64,000 bases of DNA from Anaerolineales bacterium (GTDB lineage Bacteria > Chloroflexota > Anaerolineae > Anaerolineales > E44-bin32), in assembly GCA_037382465.1 (NCBI GenBank), contig JARRPX010000005.1:6224-70223 (forward strand), written 5' to 3'. Positions within the stretch are counted from its first letter, which is position 1. Every line of letters begins with the position of its first letter. Below the pieces are notes generated by a model. That model was not told where the DNA came from. It worked only from the letters and a program-made list of their open reading frames with translations, and did no database searches. The position numbers and the translations under genes were made by a program. Shown one piece after another: positions 9,015 through 32,876 of this stretch.

Positions 9015-9023
9015 GATTCTTTT

Positions 9024-10529
<1,506 letters not shown>

Positions 10530-15087: not shown

Positions 15088-16047
15088 ATGACAGAAGCGC
15101 AAAAAGTAGCAAATGCTATCCGCGCCGCCCGGATGTACTATTACCAAAATCTCACCACCGGTGTGATTGCGAAGGAAATGAACGTTTCCCGCTCGACGAT
15201 ATCCCGGCTGCTGGGTTTTGCCAGATTAAAAGGGCTGGTGGATATCCGGATCATTGAACCGACGGATCTGCCTGATCGGCTGGCCAATGCTTTGGTCGAT
15301 GAATTTGGCATTGAGAAAATCCACGTTGTACATGCCCCCGAAATCGCTGGAGAGGCGGAATGGCTGGAAAGGGTTGCCCAATATACGGCAAACTATCTCA
15401 ACACGAAATTTGATTCCAACATGATCTTGGGTATCGCCTGGGGTACCACCATGACGGCCATTTCAAAGCATCTGCTGCGAAAAACGACCCATAACAGCCA
15501 GATCGTACAGCTGAACGGGGCCGGGAATACCCAGTCCATGGGCATCGGTTACGCCAGCCAGATTATTATGCGGTTTTCTGACAATTATCGGGCGCGGGCC
15601 CATTTATTTCCTGTGCCCACATTCTTCGATTATGCGGAAACCAAACAAGCATTGTGGCGGGAGGGAAGCATCAGGCGCATCCTGGATTTGCAATCCAAGA
15701 CGGATTTATTGTTGTACAGCATCGGGGCGGTCAATGCCGGAATTCCAAGCCATGTGTACAGCGGCGGCTACCTGACGGAAGTAGATTACAAGGAATTAGA
15801 AAAATACAATATCGCGGGTGATATTGCCACGGTATTCTTCAAAGAGGATGGCAGCTTTGAAAATATTCCCATAAACAAAAGGGCCAGCGGACCAAACTTG
15901 GGATTATTCCAACAGAAACACGGGATTTGTGTCGTCTCAGGATTGGCCAAAGTAAAAGGACTCTATGCGGCACTCAAAGGAAAACTGATGTCTGAGTTGA
16001 TAGTTGATGAACCTACCGCCAGAAAATTGGTGGATAGTTATCTATAA
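15088..16047 (+). CDS. SorC/DeoR(Bsu)-family sugar-binding transcriptional regulator
   Basis: N-terminal HTH AARMYYYQNLTTGVIAKEMNVSRSTISRLLGFARLKGLVDIRI followed by a SorC-type sugar-phosphate-binding domain (GIAWGTT, VQLNGAG). Confidence 0.9.
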   Translation: MTEAQKVANAIRAARMYYYQNLTTGVIAKEMNVSRSTISRLLGFARLKGLVDIRIIEPTDLPDRLANALVDEFGIEKIHVVHAPEIAGEAEWLERVAQYTANYLNTKFDSNMILGIAWGTTMTAISKHLLRKTTHNSQIVQLNGAGNTQSMGIGYASQIIMRFSDNYRARAHLFPVPTFFDYAETKQALWREGSIRRILDLQSKTDLLLYSIGAVNAGIPSHVYSGGYLTEVDYKELEKYNIAGDIATVFFKEDGSFENIPINKRASGPNLGLFQQKHGICVVSGLAKVKGLYAALKGKLMSELIVDEPTARKLVDSYL

Positions 16048-16167: not shown

Positions 16168-17172
16168 CTAGGGACGTCGTTTGCGGAGTTGATCGAGCAT
16201 GATCGCGGTTACGATGACCAAACCCTGTACGGCTTGCAGCCAGTAGGCCGAGACACCAACGAGCACCAGGCCGTTGCGCAGCACCTGCATCACCACGGTT
16301 CCAATCAGTACGCCCAGGATTGTACCTTCTCCACCCATGAGGCTGGTGCCGCCGACTACCGCAGCGGCGATGACATCCAGTTCATAGCCGTACGCAGCCG
16401 TAGGCGCAGCTACGCCCAGGCGCGCCGTCATGAGCACACCGCCGATAGCAGTAAGCAGCCCACACAGAGAATAAACCATGATCTTGACACTATCCGTGTT
16501 GATGCCGGAGAGGCGCGTGGCCGTCTCGCTGCCTCCGACGGCGTATATTCGGTAACCCCAAACGGTCCGGTTAAGGAATACTGCAGAGATCGTGGCGAAG
16601 ACGAGAGTGAAGATGAGTGGTAAAGGTACGCCGATTGTGCCAATGGGAATATCGTGCTGTCCGAGATACCGGAAAGAGGGGTCTAATTCACGTACCGGCC
16701 AACCGCCCGTTAATCCGTAACAAAGTCCGCGAGCCATGAGCAGCGTGCCTAGCGTAGCGATAAATGGGGGCAGTTTACCCTTGGTAATCATCAAGCCATT
16801 CGCAATCCCGACCAACAAACCTGCCACCAGACCCCCGATCACCGCGACCGGGACGGGTATCCCCTCAGCCAACAGCATGGCGCTGGCCAGGCCCGAAAGG
16901 CCCATGACTGAGCCTACGGATAGATCAATCCCGGCAGTGATGATCACCATGCATTGCCCGAAGGCGCTGAGCGCGATCCAGGAGAACGCCCGCAGGATAT
17001 TGAATATATTCGTGCTGGTGAGAAAAGTGTCGGTGTAAAGCGAGAGAAATACCACCAAGACCAATAAAATCAGCGCCACACCGAATTCTTGCCGGCCGAC
17101 GATCCTTCGCCAGGTAGTTCCGCGAGCCCGTATCTGGATATCTTCGCTCCTTGCCGTGTTTATGGTGCTCAC
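16168..17172 (-). CDS. CUT2 (ribose-type) sugar ABC transporter permease
   Basis: RbsC-like: [76 protein letters not shown]. Overlaps the upstream ATPase gene by 4 nt. Confidence 0.9.
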
Positions 17173-18782
17173 GTTGTTTCTCCTTTCGGCGCGCCCTCCG
17201 AGATAATGTCGTTATCCAGTTCTCCGCTTGCGTAGGCGATGATTCGTTCTTGTGTGGCATCCTTGCGGTCTAAAATTGCCGCAACTCTTCCTTCCGACAT
17301 CACCAGGACTCGATCGCTCATTCCCAGGATTTCCGGCAGCTCGGATGAGATCATGATGATGCCGATTCCCGAGGCCGCCAATTTACTCATCAACGCATGG
17401 ACCTCGGCCTTCGCGCCGACATCGATACCGCGCGTGGGTTCGTCCATGATCAAGATTTTGGGATCCGAGGCCAACCACTTGGCGAGGACCACCTTCTGCT
17501 GGTTGCCGCCGGAGAGGAACATCGCCTTCTGCTCTAAATAGGGCGTGCGGATGCTCAGTTTGTCGACATACTCCTGAGCTGTTTCCCGAATCGCACCCTG
17601 CTGAACCCAACCGAAACTGGCATGTTCTCCAAGCGTCGGCAGAACGATGTTCTCCGAAACGGCCATCCTGAGGACGAGTCCTTGTAACCCACGGTCCTCG
17701 GGAACCAGCCCAATACCAGCTCTTACGGCGTCGACGGGGGAACGAATGTTCAACGGGACGCCTTGGAACAGGATTTCTCCAGCTTCCTTTCGATCAGCGC
17801 CGAAGATCAAGCGCGCTGTTTCCGTTCGTCCGGCGCCAACGAGGCCGGCGAAACCCAGGATCTCGCCTTTATGTAGGGTGAAACTCACGTCTTTGACCTG
17901 ATCCCCGCCCGTCAAGCCCCGTACTTCCAACAGCGGCGCTCCGATCTCCGCCTCCTTCTTCTGGAACATGTCCGCCACCAACTCGCGGCCCACCATCAAG
18001 TGAATGATCACTTCGGTCGTCGCCTCTTGGATCGATAAACCGCCCACAAACCTGCCGTCCCGCAGGACCACAACGCGATCGGCGATGCGGAACACCTCTT
18101 CCAGGCGGTGTGTGATAAAGATGACGGCAATGCCTTGTTTTTTCAATGATTCGATAATGCCGAATAATGTATCAACTTCATCCTCACCCAGCGCCGAAGT
18201 GGGCTCGTCCATGATGATGATACGGGCATCAACGGCCAAGGCCTTGGCAACTTCGACCATTTGTTGTGCGGCGACGGATAAATCCTGGATGAGCGTGGAA
18301 GAAGATATTCGTGCGCCAACGCGCTCCAGATACATCTGTGCTTCTTTTTCCATCCGACGACGATCGACAAAGTTGAGGATCCGTCCCACGCCGCGCTCGC
18401 GAGGTTCGCGAGTGATGAAGATGTTCGCCGCCGCACTTTGATTGGGAGTCAGGTTGAATTCCTGGTAGATGATAGAAATGTTTAATTCCTGTGCGTGATG
18501 TGGGTTTTCGATCTCGATCTCTTTTCCGTCCAGCAAGATCTTCCCGGAATCTTTCCGGTATGCCCCACAGAGGATTTTCATCAACGTCGATTTTCCGGCC
18601 CCATTTTCACCAACGAGCGCAACGACTTCACCAGCCGCGACTTCAAAATCTACATTTTTCAACGCCTGGACCCCGGGGAATGCCTTGGATATGTCCTTCA
18701 TCACGAGTAAGGATTCTTGTTTTTCGGGCAAGGTGTACTCCAATATCGGGGGTTGTGGTGCGGGGTTATCCCCGCACCACAA
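17169..18782 (-). CDS. Sugar ABC transporter ATP-binding protein with two fused NBDs (RbsA-like); the exact start is uncertain
   Basis: GENGAGKST Walker [12 protein letters not shown] Walker B and ITHRLEE H-loop in NBD1; [17 protein letters not shown] and [11 protein letters not shown] in NBD2. Confidence 0.92.
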
Positions 18783-18866: not shown

Positions 18867-19910
18867 TCATTCCAAACATGCGTAAGGATCGGGCAGATCT
18901 TGGGTGAAGTCGCTCGATGCCCACATCTCGGCCATGACGTCCACGTTGCACTCGGTCACGATGTCCATGCCGGAGTCGGTCCAGTCATCGTACGTGGCGC
19001 CGGAGACGATGTAGTCGTAGATCATCTGCACCGTGTCGTAGCCCCAGCCCCAGTATTTCTGTCCGACCAGGCCCTGGATGTAGCCGTCCTGCATGAACTC
19101 CAGCTGCACCGGCAGCGTGTCGAAAGCGATGGTGACCAGGCCGTTGTTCAGCGCCGCGTCCTCCCAGAGAGGCATAGAGCCGCGCTCGGCGAACAGCGGC
19201 CACAGGCCAACCAGGAACCAGCCATCCAGGTCGGGATGTGCCTGCATGGTTTCCTCGATCACCTGCACGCCCAGGTTGATGTCGTCGTTGCAGTAGACGG
19301 TCGAGACGATCTCGATGCCGGGGTAGTCGGCCACGCCGTCCTGGAAGCCGCGGATGCGCTCCTCCAGGTTGAAGGCGCCGGGGACGCCGGTCAGCAGGGC
19401 CACTTTGCCTTCCTCGCCCATGAATTTCACGAGCAACTCGGCAGCGGCCAAACCGCCCTGGTAGTTGTCCACGCCCAGGTAGGTGAAGCGGTCGCTGTCC
19501 GGAGAGTCTGAATCCCAGGTCATCACGGGGATGCCGGCGGCGACGGCCTTGTTGATGGGGTCTTCGCAGGCGGTCGGATCGTTGCAGGAGATGCCGATGG
19601 CGTCGACGCCCTTGGCGATCACGTCTTCCATGACCCGGGTTTGCTCAGCAGCATCCGAGGCCACGGAACCCACGTAATCGACGGTCACATCGACGCCGGT
19701 CGAGGCGCTCAGCTCTTCGGCTTTCTTGAAGGCGCCATCGCGCCCGACCTCGAAGACCGGGTTGTTCAACGCCTTGGGGATCCAGGCGATGGTCAGCGAT
19801 TCTAATCCGGCATCGCTGGGCGCTTCGGTTTTCTTCGCACACCCTGCCAATGCAGCGACGAGAATTATAGCGAGGGCAATTATCACGAAAAGATAGGTCT
19901 TTCTCCGCAT
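18867..19910 (-). CDS. Sugar ABC transporter substrate-binding lipoprotein (periplasmic binding protein type I, RbsB-like)
   Basis: Signal peptide plus lipobox [24 protein letters not shown] and FDTLP resemble ribose/galactose-type binding proteins. First gene of the SBP-ATPase-permease operon. Confidence 0.85.
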
Positions 19911-20348
19911 CTCTTCCTCCTTGGGTAAAGAGACTTTAGATTACTCACCGAGTACGACGATCATAAAGGACTCTTCCACCTCCTTAATATAATATTTTCA
20001 AAGCGGAACTCGAAATTGGATGTGTTTCGGAAAGCCTCTCGGCCCGGGTATCGTGAGCGGATGTACATAGTGTATAGAATCGATGCGCGGGCATCAATGC
20101 CTGTACCCCCAATAGAGGCATGGGATAACTCATGCTTTATGCGTAGGATATCCCCTTTCCTCCCATATACTCGGCTTTATAACTGCGTCTCATCCGTGAT
20201 TTCAGGCTATACTGCAAGGGAAATAGGCTGTAGGCTGCGGGATGAGAAATCCCCCAAGAACCTTCGTTCGATCCATATTCATCTTGTCTTCCATCCGCTT
20301 AATCCTGAAGGTTTGACGATATGACCTATACATTAGTAGAATGGAAAC

Positions 20349-21401
20349 ATGGCCGAGGTCCGCATTATTCTGGCTGATGATCATGCCATCGTACGCGCAG
20401 GTATCCGCAATGCGCTGCAAGAGATGGATGATCTGGTAATCGTCGCCGAAGTGGGCGACGGTCCTTCACTTTTCAAAGCACTGTCGGAGACAGAGGCGGA
20501 TTGCGTTTTAATCGATGTCACGATGCCAGACTTCGATCCCATTCCTTCCATAGAAAAAATCCGCTCTCGCTATCCGGTGATGAAGGTTCTTGTCGTCAGC
20601 GCCTATGACGACGACTTCTATGTACAGGGTCTGCTGGGGGCCGGGGTTAATGGATATCATCTCAAGGATCAACCGCTTAGCGATCTGCGTCTGGCTGTAC
20701 AACGTGTGCTGGACGGCGGACGGTGGTTGTCCGGATCGTTGATCGATAAATTGATCAGCTACGGGGAATCGACCGTTCAGGCGCCAGCCCTGACCACCCG
20801 TCAGCGCGAGATCTTGAGATTTCTGCAGCAAGGGTTGGACAATCAATCCATCGCGCGTGAAGCCGGATTGAGTGTCGGCACTGTCGAAAACCATCTCACC
20901 CGTATTTACCGGCAGCTCAACGTGCAGAGTCGGTTGGAAGCGGTACGCTTTGTGATCGACCATCCGGAGGTGCTTGCCTCACCCGGCCAAGCAGCTGTGG
21001 ACGGCGCGAGTTTTCCCGAGATCCCTGCCGGAGAGGGGATTACGTTATTGCTGGTGGACGATAATGCACGCTACCGCTGCGAACTACGTCGTATGATCGG
21101 CCGGGTGTGCCCCCATGCTTTAGTTTACGAAGCTGAGAACACGCGTGAAGCGGTGAATTTAGTTGAACGTGTGACCCCACAATTGGTATTCATCGATGTC
21201 ATTTTACGGGAAGAAAACGGTATCAGTTGTTTGCGCCGCATCAAGGCGATCTCGCCACAATTGCGCGTCGTCCTGATCAGCGCCTATCCGGATCGGGAGT
21301 TCCACAAGTCGGGTGTGGACGCCGGCGCCATCGCTTTCATCGACAAGAAAAATTTGGACGCTGATACGCTGCATCAGATGATAAGTGATGTCGTTTTATA
21401 G
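20349..21401 (+). CDS. Response regulator with REC - LuxR/NarL HTH - second REC architecture
   Basis: REC1: ILADDH...VLIDVTMPD...VVSAYDD...GYHLKD. HTH: LTTRQREILRFLQQGLDNQSIAREAGLSVGTVENHLTRIYRQL. REC2: LLVDDN...VFIDVIL...VLISAYPD...AFIDKK. Confidence 0.9.
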   Translation: MAEVRIILADDHAIVRAGIRNALQEMDDLVIVAEVGDGPSLFKALSETEADCVLIDVTMPDFDPIPSIEKIRSRYPVMKVLVVSAYDDDFYVQGLLGAGVNGYHLKDQPLSDLRLAVQRVLDGGRWLSGSLIDKLISYGESTVQAPALTTRQREILRFLQQGLDNQSIAREAGLSVGTVENHLTRIYRQLNVQSRLEAVRFVIDHPEVLASPGQAAVDGASFPEIPAGEGITLLLVDDNARYRCELRRMIGRVCPHALVYEAENTREAVNLVERVTPQLVFIDVILREENGISCLRRIKAISPQLRVVLISAYPDREFHKSGVDAGAIAFIDKKNLDADTLHQMISDVVL

Positions 21402-21443
21402 CGGATCAAGATCTCCCAGACGCTGTACTCCTTCTCGAATACT

Positions 21444-22469
21444 TTGGTGTTGGATCAAGTGGTTATGCAGTTGCCAGCGAAGTTGAATAATTCTCTCTCG
21501 TTGAGTTCGATCGTTCGGTTCTGGCGTCACTTGGTCCAGCGACGTGAATTTGCGGTATTGTTGCTGTTTCTCATCCTCTGCACTCTCTTAAGCCTGCTGA
21601 CAGATACCTTTCTCACTTTCGACAATTTATCGAACCTCGCCCGCAACTTTTCCTGGATCGCGATCATCGCCTTCGGTCAGAGCATGGTGATCATTATTGG
21701 TGGTCTCGACATGTCTGTAGGTGCGACGATGGCGTTGGCCGGCCTCATCACCGCATATTGTATGGACGAGAATATCGGCCTGCCGGTGGGTGTTGCCGTG
21801 ACCTCGGGGCTTTTCGTCGGAGTTCTCGTTGGATGGATTAATGGTTTCATGATCGCTCGCGCGAAGCTTCCATCCTATGTCGTCACCCTGGGCACGATGA
21901 GCGTGGTGCGGGGCATTGCGTTCAGCCTGACAGGCGGCTGGCCGGTACGCAATCTGCCGGAGAATTTTCGTGTTATCGGCCAACACGAGATTCAATTCGG
22001 TTCGTGGGGAATTCCGGTGCCGTTCCTGTTGACGGTGATGACGGCGCTTGTCGTAGGTTTGTTGCTCGATAAAATGGTGTTGGGCAGGTACGTTCATACA
22101 CTCAACCGGGGCGAGCGGGCGCTGCTTCTGGCCGGCGTCAACGTTAACCAGGTCACCACGCTGGTTTACACGCTCTGCGGACTTCTGGCGGCATTTGGAG
22201 GAATAGTCATGACCGCGCGTCTGGGAGTCGCTGCTCCCACCGCGGCAAGCGGGTACGAACTGGACAGCATCGCCGCTGCGGTCGTTGGCGGCACCAGCTT
22301 GTATGGAGGCGAAGGCAGTATCGTGGGTGTGTTGCTTGGCGGTGCCGTACTCCAAACCGTGCGGAATGGACTGGTCCTGCTGGGCTTTCCCGCCTACGGA
22401 CACACCGTCGCCGTAGGCGCAATGATCCTGGCGGTCATCCTATTGAACTACTGGCGACGTAAACACTAA
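21444..22469 (+). CDS. CUT2-type ABC permease, close paralogue of 16168..17172 (alternative ATG at 21465)
   Basis: FSWIAIIAFGQSMVIIIGGLDMSVGATMAL and [44 protein letters not shown] are nearly colinear with the permease of the neighbouring importer. Confidence 0.9.
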   Translation: MVLDQVVMQLPAKLNNSLSLSSIVRFWRHLVQRREFAVLLLFLILCTLLSLLTDTFLTFDNLSNLARNFSWIAIIAFGQSMVIIIGGLDMSVGATMALAGLITAYCMDENIGLPVGVAVTSGLFVGVLVGWINGFMIARAKLPSYVVTLGTMSVVRGIAFSLTGGWPVRNLPENFRVIGQHEIQFGSWGIPVPFLLTVMTALVVGLLLDKMVLGRYVHTLNRGERALLLAGVNVNQVTTLVYTLCGLLAAFGGIVMTARLGVAAPTAASGYELDSIAAAVVGGTSLYGGEGSIVGVLLGGAVLQTVRNGLVLLGFPAYGHTVAVGAMILAVILLNYWRRKH

Positions 22470-22479
22470 GACGAGAGAC

Positions 22480-24075
22480 ATGACGCAGTTATTGAAGGCG
22501 ATCGACATCTCGAAAAGCTTCGGCACCTTACCGGTCATCCGGAATGTGAGCCTGGAAATTTCGCCCGGCGAAGTCGTGGGCATTGCCGGACAGAGCGGAG
22601 CCGGGAAATCTGCATTGACCATGCTGCTCACAGGCTTTTTGACTCCCGACGAAGGCAAGTTGTTCCTTGAAGGGCAGCAACTGCGCTGGCCGTTCAACGG
22701 ACGGGCTCTCGGAATCGAGGTTATCCATCAACACCCAGATTTGGCTGAAGACCTCGACGTCAGCAGCAACGTATTTCTGGGAAATGAAATTGGATGGTCG
22801 TTGGGGGATGATTGGCTCAAATTCCCCAATCGGCGGCGAATGGCCAAGGAGACGGTCCGTATCCTGACGCAATTAGGGGCCAACCTCGAGGACCCACACG
22901 AGATCGTTGCCAATCTTTCGAGCGAGCAACGTCAATTAATTGCGATAGCTCGCGTAATGGTCAATCCATCGAAGTTGATCATCGTTGACAATCCGACGCT
23001 TGCGCTCAGCTATCCATACCAGCACAAACTCCTATCGCTCATCGAAAGCTGGCAGCAGCAGGGAATCGCCGTCCTGATCAACAGCGACAACCCCGATCAC
23101 TTGTTGGCAGTTACCGACCGTATCATCGTTCTGCGGAACGGGCGCTGCGACAACGAGTTCCAAACCGACGACACGAATCGTGAAGAGGTGGTCGCTGCGA
23201 TGGTGGGAACCATCGACCGTCAACAGCTCACGCCAATCCTCTGGGCGCTGGACAGCTATTATCGTGCTCGTGAGCAGGCTGAAAAGCTGTCCCAGCGACA
23301 GGCCATGCTCGAAAAGGGCCTGGCTTCGGGAGAAATGATCAATCGACAGTTCATCAGCCAGTTGGCCAATCAAATCGACGCGCTGGACCAGGTTAACGCG
23401 GCGCTGCAAAACGCACAGCGCCGCTTGTTGACCGAACTCGAGCAGGAACGCAAAGGCCTGGCGCGCGAAATCCACGATCAGGTAATCCAGGATATGTTGG
23501 GAGTGAATTATCGCCTGGAGGAAATTGAATCCTATGATAATTTGGCGCCCGCGGTAAGAAACGAGCTGTCCAGCCTGCAAGACAGAATTCGCACGCTGGT
23601 GGACGACTTGCGCGATATCTGCGGCAACTTGCGCCCGCCGACAATCGACAGTTTGGGTCTGGGACCGGCCATTGGTTCGTACGCGAGAGATTGGACCAGG
23701 CGATCCGGAATCCCGGTGACCCTGGATATTGATCCCGAGCTTGGGCGCTTGCCGGAAGCCATCGAGTTGTCGATCTTCCGCATCGTGCAAGAGGGGTTGA
23801 ATAACGTGCACAAGCATTCCGGCGCCAGCGAATCCAGAGTCGAACTACGGCGCACCCTGCCGCGCACATTGATGCTCTCCGTATCTGATAATGGACAGGG
23901 CGTTGACGGCGATTTCGATCTAACCATGCTGCCCGAAAGCGGCCACTATGGACTGTTGGGCATCAGCGAGCGGGTGGTGCTGTTGGGTGGGCGGCTTAAA
24001 TTGCAGAATAATGAAGACGGCGGCTTGCTGCTCCAGGTTGAGATCCCCCATCCCCGATTGGAAATGACTACCTAG
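22480..24075 (+). CDS. Fusion protein: single ABC nucleotide-binding domain (degenerate catalytic motifs) - coiled-coil linker - NarL-class histidine kinase (HisKA_3 + HATPase_c)
   Basis: Walker A GQSGAGKS (22588..22611). Signature-like LSSEQ (22915..22929). Walker B LIIVDN (22975..22992). Q/E/L-rich linker. H-box AREIHDQVIQD (His codon 23473..23475). EGLNNVHKH, SDNGQG and GHYGLLGISERV are the kinase ATP-lid motifs. Confidence 0.85.
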   Translation: MTQLLKAIDISKSFGTLPVIRNVSLEISPGEVVGIAGQSGAGKSALTMLLTGFLTPDEGKLFLEGQQLRWPFNGRALGIEVIHQHPDLAEDLDVSSNVFLGNEIGWSLGDDWLKFPNRRRMAKETVRILTQLGANLEDPHEIVANLSSEQRQLIAIARVMVNPSKLIIVDNPTLALSYPYQHKLLSLIESWQQQGIAVLINSDNPDHLLAVTDRIIVLRNGRCDNEFQTDDTNREEVVAAMVGTIDRQQLTPILWALDSYYRAREQAEKLSQRQAMLEKGLASGEMINRQFISQLANQIDALDQVNAALQNAQRRLLTELEQERKGLAREIHDQVIQDMLGVNYRLEEIESYDNLAPAVRNELSSLQDRIRTLVDDLRDICGNLRPPTIDSLGLGPAIGSYARDWTRRSGIPVTLDIDPELGRLPEAIELSIFRIVQEGLNNVHKHSGASESRVELRRTLPRTLMLSVSDNGQGVDGDFDLTMLPESGHYGLLGISERVVLLGGRLKLQNNEDGGLLLQVEIPHPRLEMTT

Positions 24076-24454
24076 TGAACAACGGATAATCCTATACGGG
24101 GAGAAACCTCGTCTGGAAGAATTGCGCATCTTTTTTTCGCTGTAATGGATGATGATGTTAAGTTTTCACAAACGGCAGCGATATACTGCTGCATTTCATG
24201 ATCGGTAACATTATGATACAAATCGATCTTCGCTAGTGGAGGAATTAGGGGCATTTCGCTGTTCAAACGGCCAGATTATGGGTGAAGTCACAGGAAAGCA
24301 ACGTGAACGGAGCAATGGATTAAAGAGAAGTTGCATCAGAATTTGGTGCGCATTTAGTTTTCCACCCTACAAGTTTTTCCCCTTGTACGAAATCTCGAAC
24401 GCCCGGTTCTCAGTGTGATTCTCTTGACAAACGCAAAATAATATGAAATGATCT

Positions 24455-24481
24455 GGTAACGTTACCCTGATAACGTTATCA
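24455..24481. promoter_or_regulatory. Two adjacent LacI-family operator palindromes upstream of the lacI-family gene
   Basis: ggtaacgttacc (24455..24466) and tgataacgttatca (24468..24481) are both perfect palindromes with the central CG typical of LacI/GalR operators. They lie 40 nt upstream of the regulator ATG, and a TTGACA occurs at 24424..24429. Confidence 0.6.
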
Positions 24482-24520
24482 TATTCTCGCCATTTACGAC
24501 AAACCTACAAAAGCGAAGAG

Positions 24521-25534
24521 ATGCCAACAGTTCTTGATGTAGCCAAGCGTGCAGGTGTCGCACCGATCACGGTTTCTCGGGTGATCAATAACTCGGGCTA
24601 TGTCAGCCAAGCTACTCGGGAGCGTGTCGAAGCAGCGGTCAAGGAGTTGGGATATGTTCCCAACACGCTGGCTCGCGGACTCCGCTCGAAACAGACGAAG
24701 ACTCTGGCGCTGGTCGTCACGGATATCACCAACCCATACTTTACTTTGATGGCCAGAGGGGTTGAGGACGCGGCGGGGATCTCCGACTATACGGTCGTTT
24801 ATTGCAATACGGATGAATCTGAAGCAAAGGAAGAAAAATATGCCAATCTATTGGCCCAGCGGCAGGTAGACGGCGTGCTATTGGTTCCTTCGTGTGGGAA
24901 TGTAAAGACGATCAAGTTCTTGCTCTCGAACGACATCAACGTTGTGGCGCTCGATCGCCGCGTTTCGGGCGTCAAAATCGATTGTGTACGCTCTGACTCG
25001 GAAAATGGCGCCTGTCGATTGATCGAGTTGCTCATCGGACTGGGGCACAAACGGATCGCTACAATTACCGGACCCAAAGATGTTTCAACTTCAGTCGACC
25101 GTGTAGCTGGCTATCGGCGAGCATTGGTCGAATCGAGCTTGGCGGAATACGAGCAAGTTCATTATGGGATGTTCAACCAGGAGAGTGGCTACAAATTCAC
25201 CAGGCAGGTGATGATGCATTCGCCAAAGCCGACGGCCATATTTGGTGCCAACAACTATATTGCGATTGGGATTATTAAAGCTTTGCGTGATCTCGAGTTC
25301 GATGTGCCTGGCGACGTCTCTGTTGTCGCATTTGATGATTTTCCCGAATCGATGCTCCTGGCGCCTTTTTTAACCATTGCTTATCAGCCAGCCTACGAGA
25401 TGGGGCAAATGGCGACTGAAATGTTGCTGAAACGTATTTCAGGTGAAATTACTGGAGAATGTCAAAACTTGGTATTGCCTACCGAAATCATCGAACGCGA
25501 ATCGGCTGGCCCAATCTGGAATAGAAGCAGGTGA
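24521..25534 (+). CDS. LacI-family transcriptional regulator
   Basis: MPTVLDVAKRAGVAPITVSRVINNSGYVSQATRERVEAAVKELGYVPNTLARGLRS is the canonical LacI HTH plus hinge. It is followed by a PBP type I sugar-binding core. Confidence 0.95.
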   Translation: MPTVLDVAKRAGVAPITVSRVINNSGYVSQATRERVEAAVKELGYVPNTLARGLRSKQTKTLALVVTDITNPYFTLMARGVEDAAGISDYTVVYCNTDESEAKEEKYANLLAQRQVDGVLLVPSCGNVKTIKFLLSNDINVVALDRRVSGVKIDCVRSDSENGACRLIELLIGLGHKRIATITGPKDVSTSVDRVAGYRRALVESSLAEYEQVHYGMFNQESGYKFTRQVMMHSPKPTAIFGANNYIAIGIIKALRDLEFDVPGDVSVVAFDDFPESMLLAPFLTIAYQPAYEMGQMATEMLLKRISGEITGECQNLVLPTEIIERESAGPIWNRSR

Positions 25535-25562
25535 CACTGGGAAGCGTATATTTTTATCTCGT

Positions 25563-25580
25563 TGTGGTAACGTTACCACA
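25563..25580. promoter_or_regulatory. LacI-family operator (18-bp perfect palindrome) upstream of the ABC importer genes
   Basis: tgtggtaacgttaccaca contains the same GGTAACGTTACC core as the site at 24455..24466. Confidence 0.6.
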
Positions 25581-25779
25581 TTGCTCTTCGATCTCGTAAT
25601 CTGGGAAGAGGCTAGGTGTTGATGGCGCAACAAAGCAGCGACAATTCCATCCCGGGGATTCCATTTTTACACTGCCGGCCCTTGTCAGTATTGAACGGTC
25701 AGCTTTCGTGTCGTTGGTGGAGTGATTCATTTCCTTGTCGGCAAGAGAGTTTTGTAGCTCGAAACTCAAGGAGATTGCG

Positions 25780-26574
25780 ATGAAACCCAAAACAGAAGCC
25801 ACGCCCATTGTGGAAATGCGGCATATCAAGAAGAGCTTCGCTGCCGTCCGGGCGCTGCGCGGCGTAGATCTGACACTGCACGAGAATGAGGTGTTGGGGT
25901 TGGTGGGCGACAACGCCGCGGGTAAATCCACATTGATGAAAGTTCTCAGTGGCGCCTACATCCCTGACGGTGGAGAAATCTTCATCGAAGGTAAGAAAGT
26001 GCATTTTAACAATCCGTTGGATGCGCGCCAAATGGGGATCGAGATGGTTTACCAGGATTTGGCCCTGGTCAACCACCTGAGTGTGGCAGCCAATGTTTTT
26101 CTTGGACGGGAAGAGATGTCCGTACAAATGGGTTTGTTTGGCGTGATCGACCAGCGTCATATAGAAGAAGAGACGCAGCGCCTGCTCGATCGTCTCAAGA
26201 TTGACATCTCCTCCGTACGCTTGGGTGTGGAACGACTTTCAGGTGGCCAGCGTCAAGCTGTGGCCATTGCCCGGGCGACGGCGTTCAACGCCAAGGTCAT
26301 CATCATGGATGAGCCTACGGCGGCTTTGAGTGTGGCGGCTATTGACAAGGTGCTCGATCTGGTGCGGGAGCTCAAGACGCAGGGTTGTTCGATCATCATC
26401 ATCAGCCACCGCCTGGAGGACATATATCGGGTGAGTGAGCGAATGGTGGTGCTGCGTCACGGGCGCAAAGTCTGCGATTATCCCGTCTCTGGTGACATTC
26501 ATGATTTCCGCGAGCGGGTGGTCGCTTACATCGTTGGCGCCCGAAATGATTTTCCCGAGGCAGAAGTTGATTGA
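25780..26574 (+). CDS. Sugar ABC transporter ATP-binding protein, single NBD (FrcA-like)
   Basis: AAGGAG RBS (25767..25772) 7 nt before ATG 25780; the ORF-track start at 25735 is probably too long. [26 protein letters not shown] and ISHRLED are all canonical. Confidence 0.92.
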
Positions 26575-26599
26575 TGCGCGTGAAGGAAAGGGTGCTTTC

Positions 26600-26803
26600 A
26601 TGATCTCCTCAAACGCGCTGGAGACGTTTGGCATGATGTATTGCTCTGCGGTTCTTCTCACGGGAGATCTAACGACGGTTCGCGGCCGTGTTGAAACGAC
26701 GCCGATTGAAGTACTCAATCCTGCCACCGGACCGGCCTCGTTAGTGAGAGTCGGCGTAGCGGCGACTGATAAAGGGCCAAACAAAAGGAAAGAGCAGCCA
26801 TGA
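26600..26803 (+). CDS. Possible 67-aa small ORF filling the ATPase-permease gap (hypothetical)
   Basis: ATG preceded by GAAGGAAAGGG. Its stop overlaps the permease start as ATGA (26800..26803). No recognisable motif, so this rests on position only. Confidence 0.25.
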   Translation: MISSNALETFGMMYCSAVLLTGDLTTVRGRVETTPIEVLNPATGPASLVRVGVAATDKGPNKRKEQP

Positions 26804-27810
26804 GCGAGATATTAACGGAACAAATTAGCAGGGATGATGCAGTTCGCGCCGGGGAGGCAGCCGTGAATCGCGGCTTGGCTGTGGACAGGTTCATTCGCTT
26901 ATTTGCAGTTGCTGTGTTGTTTACTATCTTCTCAATAACGGCCAGGAACTTCTTTACCGTCCGAAGCATTCTCACGCTTGCCTTGCAAACCAGCACGATC
27001 ACCCTCATGGGTATCGGTGTGACCTTCACGATCATCACGGGCGGTATCGATCTCTCTATCGGATCGATCGTTGCCCTGTCCGGCACCATCGCCGTGATGG
27101 TTGCCCTTGAAGGAGTCCCCATCTGGCTCAGCATGATCGTCGGGCTGCTTGTCGGAGTCGTGAGCGGTCTCATCAACGGACTGATGATCACCAAAATGAA
27201 GCTGCCTCCGTTCATCGCAACGCTCGGCATGATGATGGTTGCCAGAGGGGTTGCGCTTACGATTACGAATGCAAATGCAAAGCCGGCGCCTGAAGGGTTC
27301 GGTGAGTTGGGCAACGGCACCATTCTGGGGACCGGACCGGAATTCCCGGGTCTATCCTACCCGCTGTTGATCATGATCGCAGTGGCGTTCGTCTTTCATT
27401 TCATTCTCGCGAAAACGCGGCTCGGAAGGTACACCTACGCCGTGGGGTCGAACGAAGAGGCGGCACGGCTCGCCGGGATCAAGATCCATCAGGTTAAAAT
27501 CATCAATTACATTTTCTGCGGCCTGCTTACGGCATTGGTCGGCATCATCCTCGCCTCCCGCATGATCACATCCCAACCCAACAGCGCAATTGGCTACGAG
27601 ATGAACGCCATTGCTGCCGCCGTCATCGGCGGCACAAGCCTCATGGGTGGCGTAGGCACAGTAGCAGGGACGGTGATCGGTTCTTTCATCATCGGCATAT
27701 TAACCGTGGGACTCACGATGCAGGGTGCAAATTATTTCATGCAGCAGATCGTTATCGGGCTCGTGGTTATCGGCGCAGTAACAGTCGACCGACTCAGAAA
27801 CCGAAAGTGA
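26800..27810 (+). CDS. CUT2-type sugar ABC transporter permease
   Basis: [42 protein letters not shown] and [19 protein letters not shown] resemble RbsC/FrcC. Confidence 0.9.
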   Translation: MSEILTEQISRDDAVRAGEAAVNRGLAVDRFIRLFAVAVLFTIFSITARNFFTVRSILTLALQTSTITLMGIGVTFTIITGGIDLSIGSIVALSGTIAVMVALEGVPIWLSMIVGLLVGVVSGLINGLMITKMKLPPFIATLGMMMVARGVALTITNANAKPAPEGFGELGNGTILGTGPEFPGLSYPLLIMIAVAFVFHFILAKTRLGRYTYAVGSNEEAARLAGIKIHQVKIINYIFCGLLTALVGIILASRMITSQPNSAIGYEMNAIAAAVIGGTSLMGGVGTVAGTVIGSFIIGILTVGLTMQGANYFMQQIVIGLVVIGAVTVDRLRNRK

Positions 27811-27948
27811 GAGACGAAGGATCGCGATATCGGACTCCCCACTTTGTTCATGTCTCGAGAGGAGGTGCTCGCTTCATACTGATGAAAATTCGGCAACGCT
27901 ACTACGATCCGTTCTATGAACCGACTATTTCGAAGGAGAAGAGATAAT

Positions 27949-29010
27949 ATGAATAAGAAACTGTTCGCTCTAACAAGCCTTCTCATGGTCATTTCTCTCG
28001 CCTTGGCAAGCTGCGGCGCTCCGGCGACTGCGGAAGTCATCGAGAGAGAAGTTGAGGTGACGAAGATCGTCGAAGTAACCTCCGCCCCCGCTGCAGTGGT
28101 AGAAGAGGGTGGGGAGATTGCGGTCATCGTCAAGACGGGCAACTCCAGCTTCTGGCAGAATGTGCAGACTGGGGCAATGGACGCCCAGAACGAGCTTCAG
28201 GATAAGACTCCCAAGCTCTCGGTCACCTTCCTTGGAGCCCAGTCAGAGAGCAACATCAACGAGCAGATCAACATCGTCGAGAGCGCAATCGATCGCGGCG
28301 TGAAGGCGATCGTGCTTGCGCCCTCAGATACCCAGGCTCTCATCCCGGTGGTAGAGAAGGCAAAGGCTGCCGGCATTCCTGTGGTCATCATCGACTCGCT
28401 GCTCGAAGGCCCGGAAGATAACTACGTATCATTCCTTGCGACCGACAACTATGCAGCAGGAGAAGCTTGTGCCAAGAGGCTGATCGAGGAAGTAAAGGCC
28501 AACACGGGCGGCGATAGCGGCAATATTGCCGTTATGTCTTACGTTGCCGGCGTGGGCTCCGAGATTGGCCGCGTGGGTGGCTTCAAGGATTACATCGCGG
28601 CGAACTCGAATCTGGAGGTCGTCACGACTCAGTACTCCAACGCCGACATGCCCACCGCACTCGACCAGACGACGAATGTGCTGCAAGCAAACCCAGATCT
28701 GGTGGGTATCTTCGGCGCCAACGAGCCGACCGCCATTGGTATGGGCCGCGCGATCGAGCAAGCAGGCCTTGCAGGGACGATTGCCGCGATTGGCTTCGAT
28801 GGCAATAGTGTCCTGGCAGAAATGGTCAGAAACGACACGCTGCAGGCCATTGCCGTTCAAAGCTCCTATAACATGGGCTACTTGGGCGTCATGACTGCCT
28901 ATGCCGTTGCCTTTGAAGGCGAGACGGTTGACCACTATGTCGACACTGGCTTCATCATGGTCGACAAGGACAACATCGATTCTCAGGATGCTCAGAACGT
29001 GCTCTACTAG
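27949..29010 (+). CDS. Sugar ABC transporter substrate-binding lipoprotein (PBP type I)
   Basis: GAAGGAG RBS. MNKKLFALTSLLMVISLALASCG is a lipoprotein signal. IAVIVKTGNSSFWQNV, VKAIVLAP and IGFDG resemble RbsB. The ORF-track start at 27916 is probably too long. Confidence 0.88.
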   Translation: MNKKLFALTSLLMVISLALASCGAPATAEVIEREVEVTKIVEVTSAPAAVVEEGGEIAVIVKTGNSSFWQNVQTGAMDAQNELQDKTPKLSVTFLGAQSESNINEQINIVESAIDRGVKAIVLAPSDTQALIPVVEKAKAAGIPVVIIDSLLEGPEDNYVSFLATDNYAAGEACAKRLIEEVKANTGGDSGNIAVMSYVAGVGSEIGRVGGFKDYIAANSNLEVVTTQYSNADMPTALDQTTNVLQANPDLVGIFGANEPTAIGMGRAIEQAGLAGTIAAIGFDGNSVLAEMVRNDTLQAIAVQSSYNMGYLGVMTAYAVAFEGETVDHYVDTGFIMVDKDNIDSQDAQNVLY

Positions 29011-30165: not shown

Positions 30166-31221
30166 ATGATGAACAAAACCAAAAACAAAACAGCGCTCGA
30201 TGTTCTCGAGAAGGATGCTCTTATCGTCATAACCGGAGCCGGGGGGTTTATTGCCGGCGCGTTGACTCGCCATTTTCATGACCAGGGTTTTACGCGCATC
30301 CGGGCCATCGATCGAAAGCCGCTGCCGTACTGGTTTCAGAGGGTGCCCGGCGTGGAATGCCTCTCGATGGATTTGCGAGAAAAGCAAAATTGTATCCGCG
30401 CAGTGGAAGGCGCCGTCGAGGTTTTCAATCTGGCGGCGGACATGGGCGGGATGGGATTTATCGAGCATTTTCGCGTGGAATGTTTGCGCAGCATCCTGAT
30501 CAATACGCATCTCCTGGAGGCGGCTTATCGCGCAGGGGTGAATCGCTATTTCTTTTCCTCTTCGGCATGCGCCTACAACACGCAGCTGCAGCAGGATCCA
30601 CATGTGCGTGCACTAAAAGAATCCGATGCCTATCCGGCGATGGCGGAACGGGGCTATGGATGGGAAAAGTTGATGTCGGAGATGTTCTGCCAGGAATATA
30701 CGGCGGAGCGCGGCTTGAATACCGCCATCGCCCGCTTCCACAATGTGTATGGGCCTTTCGGAACGTGGGACGGTGGGCGCGAGAAAGCGCCGGCCGCCAT
30801 CTGCAGGAAGGTGATCGAGGCGAAGGAATCCGGGAAGAACGAGATCGTCATCTGGGGAGACGGGACGCAGACACGCAGTTTCATGTACATTGACGACTGT
30901 GTGGAGGGGATCGACATGATCATGCATTGCGACCGCCTGATCGCGACGCCGATCAATCTCGGCTCCAGCGAATTGCTCTCCATTAACGAGCTCGTAAGCC
31001 TGGCAGAGGAAATCGGCGGCGTCAAGCTGGAGCGCAAATATGACCTGGATGCGCCGCGCGGCGTGGCCGGACGTAATAGCGATAACACGTTTATAAAGGA
31101 AGTGTTAAACTGGGAACCCACCACGCCATTCCGTGAAGGTCTTCGTAAAACGTATGCCTGGATCGAGACGCAATTCCAAGACCGTAAAGCCGGCCGGCAT
31201 ACCGTCGAAGAAGTCTACTAG
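30166..31221 (+). CDS. GDP-mannose 3,5-epimerase-like NAD-dependent epimerase (SDR superfamily)
   Basis: ITGAGGFIAG Rossmann motif, SSACAY, YGWEKL (YxxxK) and the very characteristic RFHNVYGPFGTWDGGREKAPAAICRK block, which matches plant GME (RFHNIYGPFGTWKGGREKAPAAFCRK). Confidence 0.85.
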   Translation: MMNKTKNKTALDVLEKDALIVITGAGGFIAGALTRHFHDQGFTRIRAIDRKPLPYWFQRVPGVECLSMDLREKQNCIRAVEGAVEVFNLAADMGGMGFIEHFRVECLRSILINTHLLEAAYRAGVNRYFFSSSACAYNTQLQQDPHVRALKESDAYPAMAERGYGWEKLMSEMFCQEYTAERGLNTAIARFHNVYGPFGTWDGGREKAPAAICRKVIEAKESGKNEIVIWGDGTQTRSFMYIDDCVEGIDMIMHCDRLIATPINLGSSELLSINELVSLAEEIGGVKLERKYDLDAPRGVAGRNSDNTFIKEVLNWEPTTPFREGLRKTYAWIETQFQDRKAGRHTVEEVY

Positions 31222-31252
31222 GCCCTTTACCTTCTTACATCAGGAAAGTCAT

Positions 31253-32062
31253 ATGACTACATCACGGACGAATGAGAACACTGATGTCATCGGTAAAATC
31301 CCCTATCGAATGGCTTTCGCGGGAGGCTGGATCGATCAACCTTTCGTTTCGCAATTCAACCCGGAACCACCGGGGTCGATGGTTGTAGTATCGATAGAAC
31401 CTACTATTCGTTTCATGGATCGCTGTGGGATGGCGACCAGCACGCGCGAAGTGGCGAAGCGTCTGTGGAATGGTGTTATTCCCGATCGGGCTCCTGCGGA
31501 ATTGGTGCGTGAGCTGTATGCCGAGGAAAATAAGGACAAGCCGGAGCCATCCGGTTCGCAGGATATGGCGGGTTTGCTTTATCCTGGGATCAGCCGGCTG
31601 GATTATGACTTCGCCTACGAGGGAGGTATTTTTCCCGTTCACGTGGAATCGAACAACGATCCTGTTGTTGCAAGCTGGCTGGAAGATGTACTCCATCTGA
31701 TTCCGGTAGCCATGAGGTCGGCCCATTACAATCCGTTGGGTGTAAAGAATCTATCCCCCGAATGGATAGCCCGTTTGGGAAAGACCGGACGAGATTGCTT
31801 TGACGCGATCCTGGCACGCGATGTTATCGGGCTTGGCGCTTCGATGAATGAATGCATGCAATGCTGGGAGACCATTCTGCCGCATACCGTTACTCATCCT
31901 GAAATCACTGTTGATTTGAAATCTCTCTTGACACGCTACCAGACGCAATACGAGGGAGCGATGTATTCCGGATGCGGTGGCGGGTATCTGTACGTAGTAT
32001 CGGAAGAGAACATCCCCGGAACCTTAAAAGTCAAGATTCGGATTACGCCTCGAGATGAGTGA
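31253..32062 (+). CDS. Short GHMP-kinase-like protein (fucokinase/HddA-like), motifs divergent
   Basis: AGGAAAG RBS, with ATG 31253 just after the GME stop. RMAFAGGWIDQP (compare R.sLaGGGTD.P), GSQDMAGLLYPGI (compare GGWQDQ..GLYPG of fucokinase) and C-terminal SGCGGGYLYVV (compare GAGGGGF). Confidence 0.6.
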   Translation: MTTSRTNENTDVIGKIPYRMAFAGGWIDQPFVSQFNPEPPGSMVVVSIEPTIRFMDRCGMATSTREVAKRLWNGVIPDRAPAELVRELYAEENKDKPEPSGSQDMAGLLYPGISRLDYDFAYEGGIFPVHVESNNDPVVASWLEDVLHLIPVAMRSAHYNPLGVKNLSPEWIARLGKTGRDCFDAILARDVIGLGASMNECMQCWETILPHTVTHPEITVDLKSLLTRYQTQYEGAMYSGCGGGYLYVVSEENIPGTLKVKIRITPRDE

Positions 32063-32876
32063 AAAGACCGTCTTCGTTAGCGGCAGTTTTTTCGGCATGC
32101 AATCACCGGCTATCCGTTTTTTAGAGGAGGCAGCCAAGCTGGGGAGTGTCCACGTGCTGCTGTGGGTGGACGAACCCGACGAAGCTGTGCCCCGCGGATC
32201 GATGAAATTCACAGTAGAGGAGCGTCAATACCTACTGGCAAACAACCGTTATGTATCTTCCGTGACGATCGCGGAAGAAGACGAGGGACGGCTTGACCTT
32301 CCTCTGCAGAATGAGGTCCGGCCTGATATTTGGGCGGTGCGCGAGAAAGATGACCTGGAGCCTCGGCGTGCATTTTGCGATAGGCATGACATTCAATACA
32401 GCGTCATCAAGGACAGCGACTTGGCGGGATTTCCATATCTCCCAATACCACGCAAGCCTCCCGGGAGAAAGAAAGTTGTGGTCACCGGCTGCTTTGATTG
32501 GTTCCATTCCGGCCATGTTCGCTTTTTCGAGGAGGCGTCAGATTATGGAGATCTTTACGTGGTGGTCGGAAACGACAGCAATCTGCGTCTACTTAAAGGA
32601 AAGGAGCACCCTCTGTTTTCTCAGGAGGAGCGGCGCTACGTCGTGCAATCCGTTCGATTTGTCACGCAAGCCCTGATCTCCACCGGCGCGGGATGGATGG
32701 ACGCCGAGCCGGAGATCGAACGCATCCAGCCGGATATCTACATCGTCAACGAGGATGGGGATCAACCTGAGAAAAGAGAGTTTTGCAGGCAGCATGGATT
32801 GGAATACGTGGTCCTCAAGCGGGAGCCGAAACCCGGCTTACCTCGGCGGAGCAGCACGAATCTGAGGGGTTTCTAA
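32055..32876 (+). CDS. Tandem cytidylyltransferase-like (HxGH nucleotidyltransferase) protein; the N-terminal copy is degenerate
   Basis: C-terminal half: VVTGCFDWFHSGHVRFFEEASDYGDLYVVVGND...RRSSTNLR resembles TagD/RfaE-II. N-terminal half: VFVSGSFFGMQSPAIRFLEEAAKLGSVHVLLWVD aligns to it but lacks HxGH. The start overlaps the kinase stop (ATGAGTGA). Confidence 0.7.
   Translation: MSEKTVFVSGSFFGMQSPAIRFLEEAAKLGSVHVLLWVDEPDEAVPRGSMKFTVEERQYLLANNRYVSSVTIAEEDEGRLDLPLQNEVRPDIWAVREKDDLEPRRAFCDRHDIQYSVIKDSDLAGFPYLPIPRKPPGRKKVVVTGCFDWFHSGHVRFFEEASDYGDLYVVVGNDSNLRLLKGKEHPLFSQEERRYVVQSVRFVTQALISTGAGWMDAEPEIERIQPDIYIVNEDGDQPEKREFCRQHGLEYVVLKREPKPGLPRRSSTNLRGF

Follow-up and report, generated by a model that had tools for sequence, protein, structure and literature searches.

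The 64,000-nucleotide stretch of an Anaerolineales bacterium analysed here (the window) contains a gene for a soluble protein of 531 residues in which a single nucleotide-binding domain (NBD) of the ATP-binding cassette (ABC) importer type is covalently joined to the core of a histidine kinase (HK). This protein, NBD::HK (22480..24075, plus strand), is encoded by the last of three genes in tight series, after those of a response regulator (RR; 20349..21401) and of a permease (21444..22469) that we call the sensor permease. A complete CUT2 transporter operon, encoding a substrate-binding protein (SBP), a tandem ATPase and a permease, lies directly upstream on the minus strand in divergent orientation. 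We propose that these genes specify a receptor built from an ABC importer, in which the signal would pass from the SBP through the permease and the NBD to the kinase, then to the regulator and finally to the transporter operon. We assign this reading a probability of about 0.6.

The gaps within the series are 42 nt (TTG start of the permease) or 63 nt (ATG start), and then 10 nt. An initial annotation, made from the letters of the window alone, had described these open reading frames (ORFs) and their spacing, and had placed the motifs GQSGAGKS, LSSEQ, LIIVDN, EGLNNVHKH, DNGQG and GHYGLLGISER and the kinase His codon (23473..23475); all of these match the translation. Pfam also agrees with the identities it had assigned. 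The 350-residue regulator is a REC-LuxR_HTH-REC protein with two Response_reg domains (E 5.8e-38) and GerE (3e-16), and the permease, of 341 residues from the TTG or 334 from an ATG at 21465, is of the CUT2/RbsC type (BPD_transp_2, 1.5e-32), with RbsC and then AraH as its best NCBIfam matches, below the model cut-off. In NBD::HK the predicted order was found, with ABC_tran at the N-terminus (residues 21-173, 1.3e-24) followed by HisKA_3 (PF07730; 323-387, 5.8e-12) and HATPase_c (PF02518; 429-524, 1.9e-7). The adjacent NarL/LuxR-type regulator is thus the putative cognate partner of the HisKA_3 kinase.

Along NBD::HK, the NBD covers residues 1-245 (22480..23214) and the junction that leads into the linker covers residues 241-270 (VGTIDRQQLTPILWALDSYYRAREQAEKL, 23200..23289). 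AlphaFold2 helices and HisKA_3 support the helical linker and DHp region (residues 271-390, 23290..23649), which carries the phospho-accepting His332 (23473-23475), and HATPase_c supports the catalytic ATP-binding (CA) domain (residues 391-526, 23650..24057), in which the N-box (QEGLNNVHKH), G1 (DNGQG) and G2 (GHYGLLGISER) are intact. The 118 sequences show no variation at kinase residues H332, D333, Q337, N442, D470, G472, G474 and G491. The AlphaFold2 model, computed with 118 homologues as input, has a mean pLDDT of 77.8. It is confident for residues 1-245 (pLDDT ~90) and continues with a helix at 247-281, a short break, a long helix at 288-350 that includes His332, a helix at 357-384 corresponding to the second DHp helix and an alpha/beta CA domain at 394-523. 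The N-terminal half alone matches solved ABC NBDs in Foldseek (E 5e-17, target TM 0.7-0.83); the PDB, searched by sequence and by fold, returned isolated NBDs only and no full-length analogue. NCBIfam has no model for the full architecture and yields partial matches only, all far below cut-off, among which the first 245 residues are nearest to the N-terminal half of the CUT2 ATPases AraG, XylG and RbsA. Within the window, the closest canonical relative of the fused NBD is a single-NBD ATPase (25735-26574; 35% identity).

The junction is the most conserved stretch of the protein, with a mean majority frequency of 0.93 against ~0.80 elsewhere. It contains the motif TPxxWALDSYY, of which Pro252, Trp255 and Tyr260 are invariant in the alignment of both NBD::HK clades (see below). 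The linker that follows had been described as heptad-like; it is indeed helical and amphipathic, but its periodicity peaks at 3.6-3.67 residues and does not support a strict 3.5 heptad. NBD::HK has no hydrophobic segment (maximum KD19 1.18), and therefore needs a membrane partner if it is to sense signals from outside the cell.

What the NBD has kept and what it has lost is central to our reading. Motifs were counted over 118 homologues and compared with the window's own canonical ATPases. Walker A (GQSGAGKS, residues 37-44, 22588-22611) follows GxSGxGK[ST] throughout, with G37, G42 and K43 invariant; the Q-loop Gln84 (22729-22731) is kept in 117 of the 118 homologues, and Asp170 (22987-22989) of Walker B (LIIVDN, residues 166-171, 22975-22992) in every one. 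The signature, LSSEQ(RQ) in the window protein (residues 146-150, 22915-22929), follows the pattern LS[SG]EQRQ, with Ser (88) or Gly (28) at position 148 and Glu at position 149 in 116 sequences; a non-canonical signature is also present in NBD1 of CUT2 ATPases, such as LSVAAQQ in the tandem ATPase of the window. The identification of LIIVDN as Walker B was correct as regards Asp170, but had overlooked that the next residue, the catalytic Glu, is Asn171 (22990-22992) and that the H-loop His is Asp203 (23086-23088). Across the homologues the Glu position is occupied by Asp (98), Asn (10, the window protein included) or Glu (8), and the H-loop position by Asn (79), Asp (30), Ser (5) or Lys (4), never by His. 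The ATPases of the window retain both the DE pair and the His where the fused NBD has lost them, and the second NBD::HK clade shows the same losses (LLLLD[DN]A, SSDDLK). In the P0124 clade (L108:4081-5691, L109:5133-6743; metagenome loci and protein clusters are cited by our L and P identifiers) the Walker A P-loop itself is gone (GIVDHESQAIF) and the kinase kept, still within an operon of tandem ATPase, permease, RR and NBD::HK.

Hydrolysis by ABC ATPases requires the H-loop His and the Walker B Glu, and mutants of the E-to-Q type trap the ATP-bound closed dimer, while the Q-loop contacts the coupling helix of the permease. The fused NBD would accordingly appear to keep the means of docking on a permease (Q-loop) and of clamping ATP (Walker A and B) and to have lost the features of hydrolysis. 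The replacement of Glu by Asn171 and of the H-loop His by Asp203, together with the family-wide loss of these residues, suggests that the NBD is probably a switch and not a motor. In an NBD::HK homodimer both composite ATP sites would be degenerate, and the domain seems, by its catalytic residues, unsuited to the role of a hydrolysis-competent ATPase powering import. The term transceptor, used in the initial annotation, is for the same reason better replaced by transporter-derived receptor.

From these features the following sequence of events can be envisaged. Soluble NBD::HK would dimerise via its DHp helices, and a dimer of the 21444-22469 permease would offer its cytoplasmic coupling helices as docking sites for the two NBDs. 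The lipoprotein SBP (18867-19910) would capture a sugar or polyol outside the cell and dock on the sensor permease, and docking would favour the closed, ATP-loaded NBD sandwich as in a normal importer. Because the Glu is replaced by Asn171, the H-loop His by Asp203 and the signature is degenerate, this closed state would not be reset by hydrolysis, and its occupancy would report that of the SBP. The change in NBD spacing or rotation would be transmitted by the TPxxWALDSYY junction and the long linker helix to the DHp bundle, shifting the kinase/phosphatase balance at His332. Phosphate would then pass to the REC-LuxR_HTH-REC regulator, which would bind a palindrome of the TAGGGGAAATCCCCTA type and control its own operon as well as the divergent SBP-ATPase-permease operon, such that the real transporter would be induced when its substrate is present.

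It could be argued that NBD::HK is instead a working ATPase which, with the 21444-22469 permease, forms a true transporting transceptor or flux sensor, its kinase following the transport cycle as BceS does. The conserved Walker A, Q-loop and Walker B Asp would suit such a role, and the canonical Glu is present in 8 of the 118 homologues and in the distant P0151, which also has the His; moreover, relatives in which the NBD is followed by PAS domains and a kinase have a lone permease and no other ATPase gene at their locus. We nevertheless consider this explanation unlikely, since the H-loop His is absent from 118 of 118 homologues and the catalytic Glu from 110, the clade without a P-loop (P0124) retains the same operon, and the window genes adjoin a canonical transporter that is complete and whose tandem ATPase is intact.

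The relatives just mentioned are NBD-PAS-PAS-PAS-HisKA_3-HATPase_c proteins of ~740-850 aa, which form ~14 clusters in an exhaustive search of representatives (P0287, P0421 and P0423, for instance; examples at L021:7001-9550, L022, L106:4980-7481 and L107). Their NBD shares 41-43% identity with NBD1 of ordinary sugar ATPases, and members P0178, P0266 and P0180 keep the H-loop His and have Asp instead of Glu. Their loci (L021/L022, L106) have a plain REC-GerE regulator along with a lone permease in divergent orientation, an SBP in L021/L022, and no other ABC ATPase gene in any of them. As the H-loop His is kept in the aligned members, the NBD might be a working ATPase there. Another protein, P0153 (549 aa, on a 1981-nt metagenome contig), is a one-component variant of the form NBD-TPR_MalT-GerE, whose junction motif, TPVVWALESYH, is common to the second NBD::HK clade. 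CUT2-type NBDs have thus been wired on more than one occasion to different outputs.

The proposal of a receptor built from an importer also depends on the partners of NBD::HK, which were scored by script in 80 metagenome loci, 59 of them with at least 1.2 kb and 26 with at least 4.5 kb upstream. In the 59 loci, the immediate upstream neighbour of NBD::HK encodes a permease (26), an SBP (14, usually in the order permease-SBP-NBD::HK), a permease::SBP fusion (8), a regulator (3) or an ATPase (1), and is missing in 7. Among the 26 better-covered loci all have a permease, 24 an SBP, 21 a regulator, 19 another ATPase and 15 two permeases. The search for the same neighbourhood that had been suggested recovered RR-permease-NBD::HK in sister loci, in which the whole six-gene layout of the window recurs, the genes for permease, ATPase and SBP lying on the strand opposite to those for RR, permease and NBD::HK. 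The initial annotation had noted that no binding-protein gene belongs to the operon; this is true of the transcription unit but not of the system, since the SBP gene (18867-19910) adjoins it divergently.

In several loci the sensory genes form a set of their own. L073, L078 and L085 each combine a full transporter with a full sensor set: RR, SBP, tandem ATPase and permease are followed there by another permease, another SBP and NBD::HK. A permease::SBP fusion of ~710 aa stands directly upstream of NBD::HK in L039, L045, L046, L056, L057, L058, L059 and L082. In the 714-aa example at L039:5849-7993, BPD_transp_2 (64-332) is followed by a basic linker, an extra hydrophobic helix (LLAFLIPSVLLVSALVVWQTVI) that makes the topology coherent, and Peripla_BP_4 (412-673). 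Compared with the window proteins, these fusions are 61-64% identical to the SBP in their SBP half and 54% identical to the sensor permease in their permease half. In a neighbour-joining tree the NBD::HK-linked permeases of Anaerolineae form one clade, sister to the permeases of the divergent transporters. Between orthologous pairs the identity of the sensor permease (58-79%) varies in step with the values for kinase (63-81%) and regulator (66-81%), and the transporter side is more conserved (74-88%), with 74-84% for the transporter permease and 77-88% for SBP orthologues in sister loci. The window SBP is likely, from these comparisons, to be a ligand receptor common to sensor and transporter. 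Further proteins were noted at transporter and sensor loci of this kind: L023:3201-5759 encodes an 852-aa ABC ATPase with two ABC_tran domains and Peripla_BP_4/Peripla_BP_1 matches (residues 259-601), within an operon of SBP, ATPase, permease, NBD::HK and RR, and tandem Peripla_BP_4 binding proteins of 650-760 aa are encoded at L017:3576-5537, L006:1297-3573, L024:10885-13050 and L039:997-3165.

The arrangement is not the same everywhere, and this leads to a further explanation, in which NBD::HK monitors the transporter. It would dock on the permease of the transporter itself, where it would compete with the tandem ATPase, or else on mixed permease dimers, and the extra permease of the window would be a second transporter subunit. 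A single permease with an ordinary ATPase and NBD::HK is what is found in the second clade (L023, L024, L025, L108) and in Caldilineaceae L006, and single-permease loci make up 11 of the 26 well-covered ones. For the window clade, however, the extra permease is co-transcribed and co-diverging with NBD::HK and not with the ATPase, and the permease::SBP fusions and the permease-SBP-NBD::HK cassettes beside a complete transporter indicate a separate module. We therefore hold this explanation to be as improbable as that of a transporting transceptor, although the single-permease loci suggest that such a mode may be ancestral or alternative to the dedicated receptor. A heterodimer of NBD::HK with a free NBD, for which L006 with its single-NBD ATPase could be cited, was rejected as the main model: most loci encode tandem ATPases and offer no free NBD site, and kinases of this class are homodimers.

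It is still less probable, and in our opinion very much so, that NBD::HK is a cytoplasmic nucleotide or energy sensor whose NBD dimerises with cellular ATP and has no membrane partner, the link to the permease reflecting co-regulation. A soluble protein with conserved ATP-binding residues could work in this way, but the Q-loop, the element that contacts the permease, would hardly be conserved in 117 of 118 homologues, nor the permease be present in 26 of 26 loci of many gene orders, and the clade without Walker A persists in the same operon.

The fusion itself is widespread. The best 120 clusters for the 531-aa query align over 98-100% of its length at 63-99% identity, with ABC_tran and HisKA_3 in all of them and HATPase_c in all but one. 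A second clade (representative P0275, 43% identical) adds at least 120 further clusters of the same architecture. Altogether more than 240 listed protein clusters, drawn from independent JGI, ENA, NCBI and Logan assemblies, and 449 stretches recovered by a profile scan of JGI metagenomes encode the fusion as an uninterrupted ORF, and colinear homologues span 54-99% identity. The covalent attachment of an ABC NBD as input domain to a NarL-class kinase, the principal claim of the initial annotation, is thereby borne out, and the separate genes that an artefact would imply were not what the independent assemblies contain. An error of assembly or annotation, such as a frameshift or a chimeric join between separate ATPase and kinase genes, is for practical purposes excluded by the recurrence of the ORF in hundreds of assemblies and by the fact that the junction is the best conserved part. 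Clustering at 50% leaves few representatives (P0121, P0124, P0125, P0126 and fragments), which indicates that the family is abundant and phylogenetically compact. Every source that carries a name belongs to the Chloroflexota (Anaerolineae, Anaerolineales, Thermoflexia, Chloroflexales, Roseiflexaceae, Caldilineaceae or simply 'Chloroflexota'). Database names are automatic only and misdescribe the family, either as 'ATP-binding cassette domain-containing protein' or as a generic 'histidine kinase'. We see an even chance that a whole-importer receptor operates throughout the Chloroflexota, one in which ATP-dependent NBD dimerisation, free of hydrolysis and driven by docking of the ligand-loaded SBP, would mechanically switch the kinase, and whose NBD would also be wired to PAS-containing kinases and to a MalT-like regulator.

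The output side of the proposed receptor is represented by the regulator. Both of its receiver domains retain the acidic pocket and the acceptor Asp (D10/D11/D56/S84/K106 and D237/D238/D283), and the REC-GerE-REC architecture stands next to NBD::HK in both clades. The regulator is unusually well conserved, with 57-80% identity in the alignment between loci at which the kinases share 43-80%. In a k-mer enrichment analysis, GGGAAATCCC (at most one mismatch) was present in 20 of 21 non-redundant divergent intergenic regions upstream of the RR gene, compared with a maximum of 5-6 in shuffles. The full element, TAGGGGAAATCCCCTA, is a palindrome of 16 bp that frequently occurs as a pair, 22-24 bp apart and 14-110 bp ahead of the RR start. 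Allowing up to three mismatches, there are 58 sites in the 954 kb of fetched loci and 3 in shuffled sequence. These sites are nearly all intergenic, either before the RR gene or between it and the transporter SBP gene (examples are L039:4727, L082:2142, L091:6835, L024:10679 and L094:1179), and a further position is just after NBD::HK, before the next SBP or ATPase operon. The second-clade locus L024 has a perfect copy. The palindrome is probably the operator of the REC-HTH-REC regulator, a candidate that fits a LuxR-type dimer operator for the sensor and transporter operons.

Other scans of the region gave little. Promoter and terminator counts over 19800-24600 were the same as in shuffles, with a single TTGACG-18-TAGAAT match at 20313-20342, and a repeat search of the intergenic stretch 19900-20360 produced weak pairs only. 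A perfect GGGGTTATCCCC core is present at 18762-18773, in the gap that separates the SBP gene from the probable true start of the tandem ATPase gene; about 3 such cores are expected by chance per window.

Several observations weigh against the proposed receptor. The window has no match to TAGGGGAAATCCCCTA with three or fewer mismatches in the relevant regions. The divergent intergenic region between the SBP and regulator genes (19911..20348) holds degenerate copies only, at 20138-20161 and 20237-20260; with position weight matrix scores of ~10 they rank second and third in the 64 kb, but these scores fall inside the shuffled-null range of 9-15, and the copies are not put forward as operators. 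In relatives this intergenic region has one or two strong copies. Consequently, the regulatory link at the window locus rests on synteny. The single permease of 11 of the 26 well-covered loci (~40%), shared there with a bona fide ATPase, means that a dedicated sensor complex is not universal. Since 8 of the 118 homologues retain the catalytic Glu and most have Asp, some residual ATPase activity may persist. The homologues all come from metagenome assemblies, and no cultured strain was identified among their sources. Lastly, the SBP does not name a substrate, as RhaS, the rhizopine SBP, LsrB and RbsB score 72-90 bits against NCBIfam cut-offs of 337-420.

Transporter-derived inputs to two-component systems are known in kind, and what appears to be new here is the use of an ABC NBD as the covalent input. 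The initial annotation had compared the protein with transporter-coupled systems of separate polypeptides and had seen in it a candidate new class of transceptor system. Covalent coupling of a transporter to a kinase is not new in itself: an SLC5 symporter domain is fused through STAC to a histidine kinase in CbrA and CrbS (PMC7096432, PMC5715377). As in these proteins, a transporter module serves in NBD::HK as the covalently attached input of a kinase. In CbrA and CrbS, however, the module is a membrane-embedded secondary transporter, and no ATPase, SBP or separate permease gene is involved, whereas NBD::HK carries only the cytoplasmic energising domain of a transporter; Pfam finds neither SLC5 (SSF) nor STAC in it, just ABC_tran, HisKA_3 and HATPase_c. 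As regards the ABC NBD the annotation is supported: neither NCBIfam nor the open-access full-text literature contains a characterised family of this kind, and no published description of an ABC NBD::kinase fusion was found in that literature, although absence within the open-access scope is not proof.

The Bce modules, in which the BceAB transporter works with BceS and BceR (PMC9169098, PMC3023708), resemble the system functionally. In both, an ABC complex is the sensor, a kinase that has no sensing domain of its own reads the state of the transporter, and a transporter operon is induced. The Bce ATPase and kinase are nevertheless separate proteins; the permease BceB is of the FtsX exporter type with a large extracellular domain, and BceA is active and provides a flux signal. 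BceS is a membrane-bound, intramembrane-sensing kinase in contact with the permease, whereas NBD::HK is soluble and is associated with an importer-type BPD_transp_2 permease and an SBP.

Kinases that depend on binding proteins are also well known, as in LuxP-LuxQ, TorT-TorS, ChvE-VirA and XylFII-LytS, the last of which has a sugar transporter operon as its output. The same kind of output is found in the LevQRST system, which likewise includes a binding-protein-dependent kinase (PMC3043104). All of these share with the proposed receptor the capture of a ligand by a protein of the periplasmic-binding-protein fold that controls a two-component kinase. In them, however, the SBP touches an extracytoplasmic domain of a membrane kinase, of the LuxQ, TorS or LytS type. 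NBD::HK has no membrane or external part, and the signal would thus have to cross the membrane through the ABC permease.

Paralogues of transporters that act as non-transporting sensors and induce the actual transporter include UhpC, which works with UhpB and UhpA in Escherichia coli, and Snf3/Rgt2 and Ssy1 in yeast. The sensor permease is comparable in that it is paralogous, at 49% identity, to the permease of the neighbouring transporter. UhpC, Snf3/Rgt2 and Ssy1 are, in contrast, secondary carriers of the MFS or APC type that signal to separate proteins, with no ABC machinery and no covalent kinase. In the MalK-MalT pair of E. coli, the active ATPase MalK sequesters the LuxR-type activator MalT via an extra C-terminal regulatory domain. 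In that pair an importer NBD relays the state of the transporter to a LuxR-type activator, and the relative P0153 joins the NBD and junction of the NBD::HK family directly to a MalT-like TPR plus LuxR HTH; MalK-MalT differs from NBD::HK in being neither a fusion nor a kinase. By sequence, the permease (BPD_transp_2), SBP (Peripla_BP_4) and NBD all belong to the CUT2 family (TC 3.A.1.2; RbsABC, XylFGH, AraFGH). The ATPases of that family, whether of tandem NBD1-NBD2 or single-NBD form, have their catalytic site intact, unlike the single degenerate NBD attached to a kinase in NBD::HK.

A 2024 survey of prokaryotic transceptors presents the S-component-like 5TMR kinases as the first case in prokaryotes; fusions of an ABC NBD are not mentioned in it (PMC11109136). 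In 5TMR kinases, as in NBD::HK, a module derived from a transporter is reused as the input of a two-component kinase. That module is the membrane substrate-binding subunit of ECF transporters and is related by fold only, whereas NBD, permease and SBP of the present system all show clear sequence homology to importer components. The proposed ABC-importer-derived receptor looks widespread but undescribed.

If our reading is true, this would be the first transporter-derived receptor that is ABC-based and covalently coupled, and it would offer a new transmembrane route to a kinase, by way of an ABC permease and its NBDs instead of the kinase's own transmembrane helices. Conformational coupling from SBP to NBD underlies all ABC importers and has long been debated. 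The output of the kinase would be a natural reporter of NBD closure driven by SBP docking and uncoupled from hydrolysis. The loci display graded stages, from a kinase on a single permease to a duplicated dedicated permease, a dedicated SBP and a permease::SBP fusion, which can be read as a record of a transporter becoming a receptor. Together, SBP, permease, NBD::HK, regulator and palindromic operator could serve as a portable biosensor chassis, with the SBP determining its specificity.

The divergent transporter operon of the window is itself canonical. On the minus strand, the SBP gene (18867..19910) encodes a lipoprotein with Peripla_BP_4 (Pfam E 3.5e-63), a signal peptide with the lipobox LAGC and one N-terminal hydrophobic segment. 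The tandem-NBD CUT2 ATPase (17169..18782, minus strand) has two ABC_tran domains and reaches 545 bits to XylG, RbsA and AraG; the DE pair and the H-loop His are intact in the alignment of its NBD1, and its actual start probably lies further downstream than the listed TTG. The paralogous transporter permease (16168..17172, minus strand) was identified by Pfam and by the permease tree. Within ~7 kb of this operon, with two alpha/beta hydrolase genes intervening, lies a set of genes (7305-10529 and 15088-16047) for a glycerol-3-phosphate-oxidase-like FAD enzyme (DAO+DAO_C), an FGGY sugar kinase and a SorC-type 'Sugar-bind' regulator. The set recalls erythritol (eryABD) or lsr loci, and the ligand may accordingly be a polyol or an unusual sugar.

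Downstream of NBD::HK, a second CUT2-like system (24521-29010) comprises a LacI-type repressor, a single-NBD ATPase, a permease and an allose/ribose-like binding protein. Nucleotide-sugar genes follow at 30166-33970, and a hybrid histidine kinase with HisKA, HATPase_c and REC domains, unrelated to NBD::HK, at 34413-36626. The contig of the window is 99% identical to the Anaerolineales metagenome-assembled genome sequence DAOUEE010000069.1.

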